NCBI GenBank assembly: GCA_944392555.1
Contig: CALXWZ010000002.1
Span: 59,085 to 123,084 of the forward strand
From: an uncultured Alphaproteobacteria bacterium
GTDB taxonomy: Bacteria; Pseudomonadota; Alphaproteobacteria; CAAHEQ01; UBA3637
Direction: 5' to 3'
DNA length: 64,000 nucleotides
Part shown: piece by piece, positions 21,059 through 22,378 of the stretch
How positions within the stretch are numbered: the stretch's first letter is position 1
How the letters are laid out: the number at the start of each line of letters is the position of its first letter
Program-made: the position numbers and the translations under genes
Notes under the pieces: generated by a model
Databases searched by the model: none
Seen by the model: the letters and a program-made list of their open reading frames with translations, nothing else
Told to the model about the DNA's origin: nothing

Positions 21059-22378
21059 CTAGATTGTTTCTTCGCAACAAGTTTCCGTTTCTATGGGGGT
21101 TGTGGTGGTCACGGGTGTTGTTGTGGTGAGTGGTGTTGTCGTTGTTGTCAGCGGGGTGGTTGTTGTAGAGAGATTATCTCCGCACTTATCGGCATATTGT
21201 GCGCAAGAATACTCATCTCCTCGTTGGCAAGCAAGATAATAGCATTCACACTCCGAACCACAACTTGTTGTTGAAACTGTCGGTGTTGTTGTTGTCAACG
21301 GGGTTGTGGTCGTGGAAACACCGCAATTGATGCAACAGAAACATAAGTCATCCAATACCCCACCCGCGTCTTCACAGCAACGTTCAGCTTCAGCGCGGTA
21401 TTTGTTGCAGATTGTCGGGTCTTCGTTGTTCACAACAATACGGCAATCAAAAGTAGTTGTTGTAATCGGGGTTGTTGAAGTGAACGGTGTTGTGGTTGTT
21501 GTGAGCGGTGATGTTGTTGTAGATAAATCACATCCGATACAGCATGAACAATTTTCATCCAATACCCCACCCGCGTCTTCACAGCAACGTTCAGCTTCAG
21601 CGCGGTATTTGTTGCAGATTGTCGGGTCTTCGTTGTTCACAACAATACGGCAATCAAAAGTAGTTGTTGTAATCGGGGTTGTTGAAGTGAACGGTGTTGT
21701 GGTTGTTGTGAGCGGTGATGTTATTGTAGATAAATCACATCCGATACAGCATGAACAATTTTCATCTAATACGCCGCCCGCGTCTTCACAGCATTGCTCT
21801 GCCTGCGCACGGTAATTGTTGCAGATTGTCAGGTCTTCGTTGTTAACAACAATACGGCAATCAAATGTCGTTGTCGTCAACGGAGACGTGGTCGTCGTCA
21901 GCGGAGACGTGGTCGTCGTCAACGGAGACGTGGTCGTCGTCAACGGAGATGTGGTCGTCGTCAACGGAGATGTGGTCGTCGTCAACGGAGACGTGGTCGT
22001 CGTCAACGGAGATGTCGTCGTCAGCGGAGACGTGGTCGTCGTCAATGGAGACGTGGTCGTCGTCAATGGAGACGTTGTTGTGGTAGATATATCAGGTGAA
22101 GAAGTTGTTGTGTTGAGTTGCTCAAAATCTCCGCTTACATCGAAAGGCGTTGTTTCGGTTTGAAATGGATTGCTGATTGGTGATGTCGTGGTTGTTATGG
22201 ATTTATCCGAGATGCTATCAGATACAGCGTTATCTGAAACGTTGGCGAAATAACTTGGATAAGCATATGGCTGTGCATATGCTTGAACGCGAATTGTTTC
22301 CCCATAAACCACCTGTGCCGATATGGCTGTTTGAAAAAGCAAAAAGGCACCTAAAAATGCAACCGCTTTTCTTATCAT
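21059..22378 (-). CDS. Secreted Thr/Ser/Pro- and Cys-rich tandem-repeat protein (439 aa) with a signal peptide
   Basis: N-terminal signal peptide MIRKAVAFLGAFLLFQTAISAQ. About 11 copies of TTTSPL, and 3 copies of an about 81-aa Cys-rich module (CRIVVNNEDxTICNxYRAxAExCCEDAGGVLDENCSCCIGC). The + strand ORFs in the same span are repeat artefacts. Confidence 0.7.
   Translation of the reverse strand: MIRKAVAFLGAFLLFQTAISAQVVYGETIRVQAYAQPYAYPSYFANVSDNAVSDSISDKSITTTTSPISNPFQTETTPFDVSGDFEQLNTTTSSPDISTTTTSPLTTTTSPLTTTTSPLTTTSPLTTTTSPLTTTTSPLTTTTSPLTTTTSPLTTTTSPLTTTTSPLTTTTFDCRIVVNNEDLTICNNYRAQAEQCCEDAGGVLDENCSCCIGCDLSTITSPLTTTTTPFTSTTPITTTTFDCRIVVNNEDPTICNKYRAEAERCCEDAGGVLDENCSCCIGCDLSTTTSPLTTTTTPFTSTTPITTTTFDCRIVVNNEDPTICNKYRAEAERCCEDAGGVLDDLCFCCINCGVSTTTTPLTTTTPTVSTTSCGSECECYYLACQRGDEYSCAQYADKCGDNLSTTTTPLTTTTTPLTTTTPVTTTTPIETETCCEETI
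21250..21870. repeat. About 243-bp coding tandem repeat, about 3 copies (Cys-rich module of the repeat protein)
   Basis: Plus-strand ORF 21306-21815 shows the same 81-aa translation twice in a row, with a further partial copy on each side. Nucleotide copies are near-identical. Confidence 0.8.
21873..22075. repeat. 18-bp coding tandem repeat, about 11 units (GTCGTCGTCAACGGAGAC/TGTG; encodes TTTSPL on the minus strand)
   Basis: Direct visual periodicity of 18 nt with minor variants over about 200 bp. Confidence 0.85.

Follow-up and report, generated by a model that had tools for sequence, protein, structure and literature searches.

The 64-kb window analysed here (64,000 nucleotides of contig CALXWZ010000002.1, from an uncultured Alphaproteobacteria bacterium) carries on its minus strand, at positions 21059-22378, a gene for a mucin-like protein of 439 amino acids (aa) in which Thr-rich tandem repeats are combined with cysteine modules. 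We propose that the product is secreted or exposed at the surface, stabilised by disulfides, specific to its clade and fast-evolving, with conserved termini and a recombining middle. We lean towards this proposal as a whole; its structural and evolutionary parts are very probably correct, and the location of the protein and the role of its C-terminal tail are tentative suggestions, more open to doubt than to confidence.

The sequence-only reading of this region had predicted a minus-strand gene for a secreted protein, and the open reading frame (ORF) is indeed intact over exactly these positions. Thr makes up 27% of the residues, Ser 8% and Pro 7%, and there are 32 Cys (3 x 8 + 6 + 2), all in even-numbered groups: three 8-Cys modules, one 6-Cys hairpin and then a terminal CC (Table 1). 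The signal peptide was borne out as well: the N-terminus, read by eye and with a hydropathy scan and without a dedicated predictor, is signal-like, with a cleavage-type site between MIRKAVAFLGAFLLFQTAISA and QVV, and it is the sole hydrophobic segment of the protein. Residues 1-173 are free of Cys, and a lipobox is ruled out because the signal peptide has none. The region that follows starts with ETIRVQAYAQPYAYP, in common with the closest orthologue, L089 (ATIRVQAFARPQAYF). Each 8-Cys module is spaced C-x11-C-x9-CC-x10-C-x-CC-x2-C, and a Thr-rich linker separates the third of them from the 6-Cys module. The promoter-like site upstream matches 11 of 12 consensus positions and is, by consensus match only, the best in the region. 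The gene uses Thr codons in much the same way as the adjacent yhdP. The apparent plus-strand ORFs at 21306-22163, already taken for mirror artefacts, are Val/Gly/Arg-rich reverse-complement images of the Thr codon runs. The chromosomal gene is genuine, and from its sequence it encodes a predicted exported protein of the Sec / signal-peptidase-I type.

Table 1. Features of the gene for the mucin-like protein and of its upstream neighbour, in window positions.
Feature	Position	Strand	Basis or remark
Coding sequence, mucin-like Cys-module protein, 439 aa + stop	21059-22378	-	ORF listing and translation
Predicted signal peptide (aa 1-21)	22316-22378	-	MIRK n-region, AVAFLGAFLLF h-region, ISA/Q cleavage-type site; sequence reading and hydropathy
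Non-repetitive N-terminal region, 77 aa (aa 22-98)	22085-22315	-	starts ETIRVQAYAQPYAYP
Heptad array, 10 tandem units (aa 99-167)	21878-22084	-	nine 21-bp TTTTSPL and one 18-bp TTTSPL
Long repeat unit 1 (aa 169-237)	21668-21874	-	8-Cys module and Thr/Pro linker, 69 aa / 207 bp
Long repeat unit 2 (aa 238-306)	21461-21667	-	mosaic of unit 1 and module 3, 69 aa / 207 bp
Module 3 (aa 307-354)	21317-21460	-	8-Cys pattern kept; 3' part diverged, other linker
6-Cys module SCGSECECYYLACQRGDEYSCAQYADKCG (aa 372-400)	21179-21265	-	predicted disulfide-stapled helical hairpin
C-terminal Thr/Pro linker TTTTPLTTTTTPLTTTTPVTTTTPI	21086-21178	-	translation
C-terminal tail ETCCEETI	21062-21085	-	CC-x-x-T-I(P)-stop motif
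Perfect 168-nt direct repeat, first copy in gene order	21555-21722	-	exact identity, mismatch at both flanking positions
Perfect 168-nt direct repeat, second copy in gene order	21348-21515	-	identical to 21555-21722
Promoter-like element TTGACA-18 nt-TAAAAT	22445-22474	-	consensus match in the 114-bp gap to the yhdP-like gene
yhdP neighbour, YhdP/AsmA-like, 1104 aa	22493-25807	-	PF13116, 6e-22; synteny anchor, upstream of the mucin-like gene

The two repeat arrays of the gene are the strongest tandem repeats in the whole window. Tandem Repeats Finder gave a period of 21 with 9.8 copies and 92% matches (21873-22075) and a period of 207 with 2.5 copies and 94% matches (21348-21874). The repeats had at first been described as some 11 copies of an 18-bp unit nested inside about three copies of a 243-bp (81-aa) unit; the short unit is really 21 bp (TTTTSPL, nine units, with one 18-bp TTTSPL), the long one measures 207 bp (69 aa) and is present in about 2.5-3 copies, and the heptads at 21878-22084 adjoin the long units (21461-21874 plus 21317-21460). 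The 10-Cys module described at the same time, C-x9-C-x8-CC-x11-C-x-CC-x-GC, has to be replaced by the 8-Cys pattern given above, and the peptide quoted for it is exactly module 2. The third copy of the long unit keeps the Cys module and carries a different linker. The near-identity claimed for the copies holds only in patches: units 1 and 2 are identical at 190/207 nt, and a perfect stretch of 168 nt is shared by unit 2 and module 3, which diverge beyond it. The heptads show a mean pairwise identity of 91% over 5 distinct unit sequences. The 6-Cys C-terminal module, the conserved CC-x-x-T-I tail and the clade-wide syntenic hypervariable locus had been overlooked.

This locus emerged when homologues of the YhdP/AsmA-like protein were traced to their contigs. 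Where YhdP is 60-71% identical (four related species, five assemblies), the next gene downstream on the same strand encodes a signal peptide, Thr/Ser-rich tandem repeats and Cys modules, and both the repeat units and the modules differ between species. The gene of L089 has 22-aa repeats and CPDGIC loops, those of L090 and L091 have 36-aa repeats and 4-Cys CGDGSCACDYLA...NC modules, that of L092 has Pro/Thr repeats and larger Cys domains, and that of L101 combines Thr-rich repeats with a globular domain of ~270 aa that contains Cys; like the window protein, these orthologues begin with signal peptides. The L090 and L091 genes (13403-14884 and 13403-14776), which belong to one species, are exactly one 36-aa (108-bp) unit apart (493 vs 457 aa) and have near-identical flanks. 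Where YhdP is at most 51% identical, the prfB-phoU-pho4-yhdP block is kept and the mucin-like gene is absent. Conservation in the family is confined to the ends of its proteins: the signal peptide, a short N-terminal motif in close relatives and the C-terminal CC[EDA][EV]TI(P). The deposited annotation of L101 (GCA_965319535.1) calls genes at 11588-12373 (minus strand) and 13175-14014 (minus strand), which are mirror ORFs on the wrong strand with VVSASVDVSG... repeats, and the real plus-strand Thr-rich gene with its signal peptide is uncalled; such miscalls therefore help explain the near-absence of the family from protein databases.

Every family copy that is readable to its stop codon ends in CC[EDA][EV]TI(P). 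The window protein ends in CCEETI-stop, L090 and L091 in CCEETIP-stop, L092 in CCEVTIP-stop, and two further relatives found with HMMER (L007 and L008, described below) in CCDETIP-stop and CCAVTI-stop; all six combine this tail with a signal peptide, Thr-rich repeats and even-numbered Cys modules. The L089 and L101 proteins run off their contigs before the C-terminus. A regular-expression scan of the window and 96 loci (~0.8 Mb in total) found CC-x-x-T-I(P)-stop only in these genes, and the Cys-module signatures were likewise restricted to them. A scan of metagenome contigs for CCEETIP-stop gave four matches, all of them in ORFs of 8-40 aa and rejected as chance. The 8-aa tail persists although everything else in the protein has been replaced; chance is therefore an unlikely explanation, and the pattern is the signature of a functional tag. 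In this respect it is like known sorting tags (LPXTG/sortase, PEP-CTERM/exosortase, GlyGly-CTERM/rhombosortase and the C-terminal domain of the type IX secretion system), which are also short conserved extreme C-termini on otherwise unrelated proteins. Unlike them, the tail has neither a transmembrane helix nor a basic stretch and ends 4-5 residues past the CC, there is only one CC-x-x-T-I gene per locus examined, and no cognate enzyme was identified. Likewise, an NCBIfam search with six family members gave no match above noise and no CTERM model. The boldest reading, in which CC-x-x-T-I(P)-COOH would serve a clade of gut Alphaproteobacteria as a new C-terminal tag for sorting, anchoring or cross-linking, borne by hypervariable, mucin-like and probably glycosylated surface proteins with shuffled new disulfide modules and served by a dedicated recognition machinery, is speculative and we regard it as doubtful. 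If true, the tail would be a functional equivalent of LPXTG or PEP-CTERM without a transmembrane segment.

The Cys modules had been called unfamiliar, and they remained so: neither the protein nor its isolated modules nor five relatives had a credible match in Pfam, NCBIfam or the PDB sequences. In Pfam the full protein gave at E <= 0.01 nothing but a spurious, sub-threshold match to ANAPC9, and the isolated modules had no match even at E <= 1, including to any carbohydrate-binding module (CBM) family. A word-indexed search of 5.8e9 proteins brought up only two sequences, fragments or alleles belonging to this species, and an exact-product look-up found no record of the window protein, which is one residue off the product of the metagenome assembly L001. 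The HMMER scan of 1.84 billion representative proteins, with module 3 and the 6-Cys module as the query, yielded two true relatives beyond the species (P0003, E = 1e-12; P0004, E = 1e-10), both on bacterial contigs (L007 and L008); P0005 and P0006, from the same scan, proved on inspection to be unrelated low-complexity repeat proteins. The genes of both relatives are longer than their gene calls: that of L007 has a gap of undetermined bases (N-gap), runs off its contig and adjoins ankyrin-repeat genes and rpmG, and that of L008 codes for no fewer than 412 aa, among them a long Ser/Thr/Pro stretch. Both also carry Thr-rich linkers. In the 8-Cys module all eight Cys and a CC-E-[DE]-A-[GD]-G core are conserved between two species, and the 6-Cys module aligns with modules of P0003 and P0004. 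A homologue search with the N-terminal 98 aa found nothing; it missed even P0002, which contains the query exactly, and is hence uninformative.

AlphaFold2 was run on the small module alignments and gave models of moderate confidence, with three short helices and a beta-hairpin for the 8-Cys module (mean predicted local distance difference test, pLDDT, 70.7) and two helices forming a helical hairpin for the 6-Cys module (pLDDT 78.8). Neither predicted fold had a structural match in the PDB. Literature searches on the tail and module motifs and on bacterial mucin-like proteins, as well as on alphaproteobacterial symbionts of rumen ciliates, found nothing pertinent. Among the relatives, the N-terminal Cys domain of L007 (157-690, plus strand) and the C-terminal Cys domain of L092 (~14990-15540, plus strand) matched only weakly, at E = 0.012 and 20% identity, in BLASTP and have CP[AT]GW..., C..ECHQ.V.C and DC.GGY in common, which hints that larger Cys domains may also be shuffled among family members.

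The middle of the gene carries the traces of recombination between repeats. In the window strain the 5' 113 nt of unit 2 and the 55 nt preceding them are identical to module 3, which makes up the 168-nt repeat, and its 3' 94 nt match unit 1 except at a single position. In a second strain (L005) unit 2 is unit-1-like throughout: its first 113 positions differ from its own module 3 at 14, and its second half is identical to that of the window. The three modules of L005 differ from each other at 13-56 positions per 207 nt, and small patches (e.g., sites 98, 101 and 107) are distributed differently among the modules of the two strains. Most codons that distinguish unit 1 from unit 2 are synonymous (10, against 5 non-synonymous) and all Cys are kept, and both the minus-strand frame and a constraint on the module are therefore supported. 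As L005 also has three modules, the three-module state predates the split of the strains, and the perfect 168-nt identity in the window strain is best explained by gene conversion between modules (concerted evolution) after that split. An origin of unit 2 by unequal crossover from a two-module ancestor was downgraded, given the three modules and the unit-1-like unit 2 of L005. The recent expansion or slippage suggested by the sequence-only reading therefore has to be modified: variation driven by the repeats is real, since two strains differ in their module mosaic and two assemblies of one orthologue are a single 36-aa unit apart, but this is not a simple recent expansion.

Near-identical short tandem units are also the substrate of slipped-strand mispairing, by which a classical phase-variable contingency gene would be switched ON and OFF. 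However, every repeat period is a multiple of three, both in the window (21, 18 and 207) and in the orthologues (108, 144, 66, 51, 63, 24, 42, 36, 78 and 120), and neither the promoter nor the 5' end holds a homopolymer or a non-triplet repeat. Slippage or recombination therefore alters the length and the mosaic and leaves the reading frame unchanged. Judged by these periods, the variation is of the size and antigenic type, and we consider ON/OFF switching exceedingly improbable.

Starting from the neighbouring PHO4 protein, the locus was traced in independent metagenome assemblies, and the gene occurs in L001, L002, L003, L005 and L006. L001 has 10 heptads and 3 modules as in the window, with one single-nucleotide polymorphism (SNP) in 2 kb and one amino acid different in the product. 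L002 matches the window base for base, and its contig breaks off exactly where the 168-nt perfect repeat ends; the contig of L003 stops within the heptad array. L005, a 210-kb scaffold ~97-98% identical to the window, has an N-gap within the heptads. A third genotype, on a 1968-bp contig (L006), encodes a 246-aa version (P0002) with two heptads and one module; this may be a short allele that really exists, or the repeats may have collapsed in assembly. A pattern scan of genome contigs with the window protein gave 67 pattern matches and 0 confirmed ones; the species is apparently outside the GTDB representatives, or its orthologue there is too diverged for exact 8-mers.

The breaks raise the question of whether the repeat structure is a short-read assembly artefact and the true gene shorter or different, for example like P0002. 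Contigs do end or gap at the repeats, as L002 and L003 do at their ends and L005 and L007 with N-gaps, the short version in L006 exists, and a perfect repeat of 168 nt exceeds usual assembly k-mers. Against this, L001 gives the same 10 heptads and 3 modules independently, and L002 is identical to the window up to the end of its contig. Moreover, the modules of L005 differ enough to be resolved unambiguously, the heptad units carry distinguishing variants, and orthologues elsewhere are equally repetitive. An artefact is, in our view, quite improbable. The repeats exist in the organism, and their exact copy numbers, derived from short reads, are uncertain. With regard to length variation between strains, as first proposed, the in-frame near-identical repeats and the differing mosaics of two strains are established, and the apparent copy-number differences (L006 vs the window, L090 vs L091) come from short-read assemblies with uncertain repeat counts.

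With the repeats taken as real, we propose the following course for the mucin-like protein. It would be exported by its Sec-type signal peptide, after which the Cys modules would be oxidised to disulfide-stapled knots and the Thr-rich spacers would be extended and possibly O-glycosylated. Its place of action would lie beyond the cytoplasmic membrane, most likely on the cell surface or further out, where it would be a variable component of a coat or matrix or an adhesin. The invariant CC-x-x-T-I(P) tail may mediate export across the envelope, attachment to it or intermolecular disulfide cross-linking, and the middle diversifies by in-frame repeat recombination, with gene conversion between modules and probably changes in copy number.

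Several points weigh against this proposal. In a diderm a Sec signal alone delivers only to the periplasm, and no sorting enzyme or secretion partner was identified for the protein. The host habitat was derived solely from dataset and genome names. The copy-number variation was seen in short-read metagenome assemblies that break or gap at the repeats, and the short L006/P0002 form could be a collapse. Orthology across species depends on synteny, architecture and the 8-aa tail, and BLASTP of the window protein against L090 was not significant, with only the tail aligned. Finally, yhdP, the sole conserved neighbour, keeps its own upstream neighbours in relatives that are devoid of the mucin-like gene, and the link to yhdP may therefore be positional only.

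A rival reading gives a different location, in which the protein would be periplasmic or internal to the envelope and tied to the YhdP/AsmA-like lipid-transport protein, for instance as its spacer or partner. In every clade genome examined the gene immediately follows yhdP and shares its strand, and a Sec signal without recognisable outer-membrane targeting defaults to the periplasm in diderms. However, the mucin-like gene has a strong promoter-like site of its own, and distant relatives keep prfB-phoU-pho4-yhdP in its absence. The extreme turnover of its sequence would moreover be unusual for the partner of a housekeeping machine and typical of exposed proteins. We therefore hold a YhdP partner to be unlikely.

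The RpoB of the organism is 91% identical to that of the metagenome-assembled genome (MAG) 'uncultured Alphaproteobacteria bacterium Lapin-032__bin105' and at most 69% identical to all others, the next being Rhodospirillaceae/Acetobacteraceae-type MAGs. The window is a stretch of ordinary alphaproteobacterial chromosome, with a tRNA, rpoB, rpoC, Tol-Pal genes, ruvB, TrcR and dnaKJ, among which accessory genes are scattered (for the BspA-type, Fic and 1011-aa Cys-rich proteins described below). A herbivore-gut habitat is likely from dataset and MAG names only: 'Lapin' suggests rabbit, and the dataset codes of the relatives, XIEF21-1 and TONG22-1, are presumably those of ruminant and buffalo gut surveys.

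The protein might also be a host mimic or a eukaryote-like protein acquired by horizontal gene transfer, imitating mucins of the gut or of the peritrophin type and serving to blend into or bind mucus or to meet a protist host, a reading that overlaps with ours. Thr/Pro repeats such as TTTTPLTTTTTPLTTTTPVTTTTPI are compositionally like the Pro/Thr/Ser (PTS) repeats of animal mucins, and Cys modules alternate with PTS spacers as they do in gel-forming mucins, whose PTS regions are interrupted by CysD, and in insect intestinal mucins. Other eukaryote-like repeat proteins are encoded nearby, namely two leucine-rich-repeat (LRR) proteins of the BspA type, with Ank and Sel1 proteins in relatives, and there is a Fic gene. 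On the other hand, there is no detectable sequence or fold similarity to a eukaryotic mucin, peritrophin, hevein or other Cys domain, all relatives found are on bacterial contigs, and Thr codons are used as in yhdP. Mimicry would also require an O-glycosylation system, and none was identified. It is an unlikely explanation. A GT2 glycosyltransferase (28758-29891) was considered as a glycosylation partner and rejected, as it is not conserved beside the locus in relatives.

With animal gel-forming and intestinal mucins the window protein shares the signal peptide, a variable number of Thr/Pro/Ser tandem repeats with interspersed disulfide modules, and Cys at the extreme C-terminus with possible intermolecular bonds. 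The PTS-type repeats are clearly present (ten TTTTSPL-type units and Thr/Pro linkers), and Pfam found no VWD, CysD, CTCK or CBM14 in it. It differs in being bacterial and only 439 aa long, with unmatched module folds and putative glycosylation. With the serine-rich repeat glycoproteins (SRRPs) of Gram-positive bacteria (Fap1, GspB and SraP) it shares secretion and tandem repeats of hydroxy-amino acids, with a copy number that apparently varies between strains. Unlike them, it has an ordinary 21-aa signal peptide without KxYKxGKxW, no LPXTG, Thr-rich heptads instead of SASx-type dipeptides, 32 Cys and a diderm host. Accessory Sec or glycosyltransferase genes are not adjacent, the neighbours being yhdP and the LRR genes, and the only match to an NCBIfam serine-rich model, on an orthologue, had E = 0.9.

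Proteins with PT-box-linked CBMs (CBM1, CBM10 and CBM18-type) are similar in their ~30-45-aa disulfide modules on Thr/Pro spacers, their secretion and their plant-degrading gut ecosystems. The window protein differs from these in the lack of a catalytic domain and of any CBM family at E <= 1, and we know of no CBM family with a C-x11-C-x9-CC-x10-C-x-CC-x2-C spacing. The variant-specific surface proteins (VSPs) of Giardia likewise join a variable Cys-rich ectodomain to an invariant C-terminal motif (CRGKA); they are, however, eukaryotic, transmembrane-anchored and CXXC-rich, there is no homology, and the likeness is conceptual only. By these analogies the architecture of the window protein would resemble a miniature mucin or peritrophin-type protein or a string of PT-linked CBMs, and its evolution that of surface proteins with a variable number of tandem repeats.

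The BspA-type LRR proteins (PF13306, ~1040 aa) are two paralogues encoded at 14266-17373 (plus strand) and 17545-20703 (plus strand), between rpoC and the mucin-like gene and directly downstream of the latter; the pair is also present in L001 and L005. In relatives, Ank and Sel1 genes with eukaryote-like repeats flank the locus. Elsewhere in the window, a 1011-aa ORF at 47023-50058 (plus strand) has no Pfam match and consists, beyond its N-terminus, of a very large stretch rich in Cys, in which CxxC-like spacings are numerous; the N-terminus shows a basic leader followed by a signal of prepilin / type IV pilin-type look (…GRSMVEMLGVLAVIGVLSVAGMMGY), and its product may be a second unusual disulfide-rich exported protein of this genome. 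A Fic/DOC-family protein (PF02661) is encoded at 60002-61108 (plus strand) in a stretch of lower GC content (~38%, 58-62 kb) and may be of accessory or effector type. At 33028-33107 there is an intergenic 34-bp tandem repeat (2.4 copies, 91% matches) downstream of a T2SSE-type ATPase gene (33205-34659, minus strand). The prfB (RF2) ORF at 27468-28487 (minus strand) is listed from a TTG start with 339 aa. RF2 genes commonly have a programmed +1 frameshift near the 5' end, and the protein may therefore actually begin further upstream, in a different frame.

Repeat-rich, size-variable secreted proteins are a kind already known, and what appears new, as far as the databases and literature searched show, is the pair of orphan Cys modules and the clade-wide invariant tail. 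To this kind the family contributes two Cys modules for which Pfam, NCBIfam and the PDB hold no detectable relative. Because gene callers miscall or truncate its members through mirror ORFs, contig breaks and N-gaps, most of the family escapes the protein databases. A tail that stays invariant despite the turnover elsewhere is a pattern that usually signals a processing or anchoring step, and if it is a sorting or cross-linking signal, it would offer a new approach to surface construction in the poorly known, uncultured Alphaproteobacteria of the gut.

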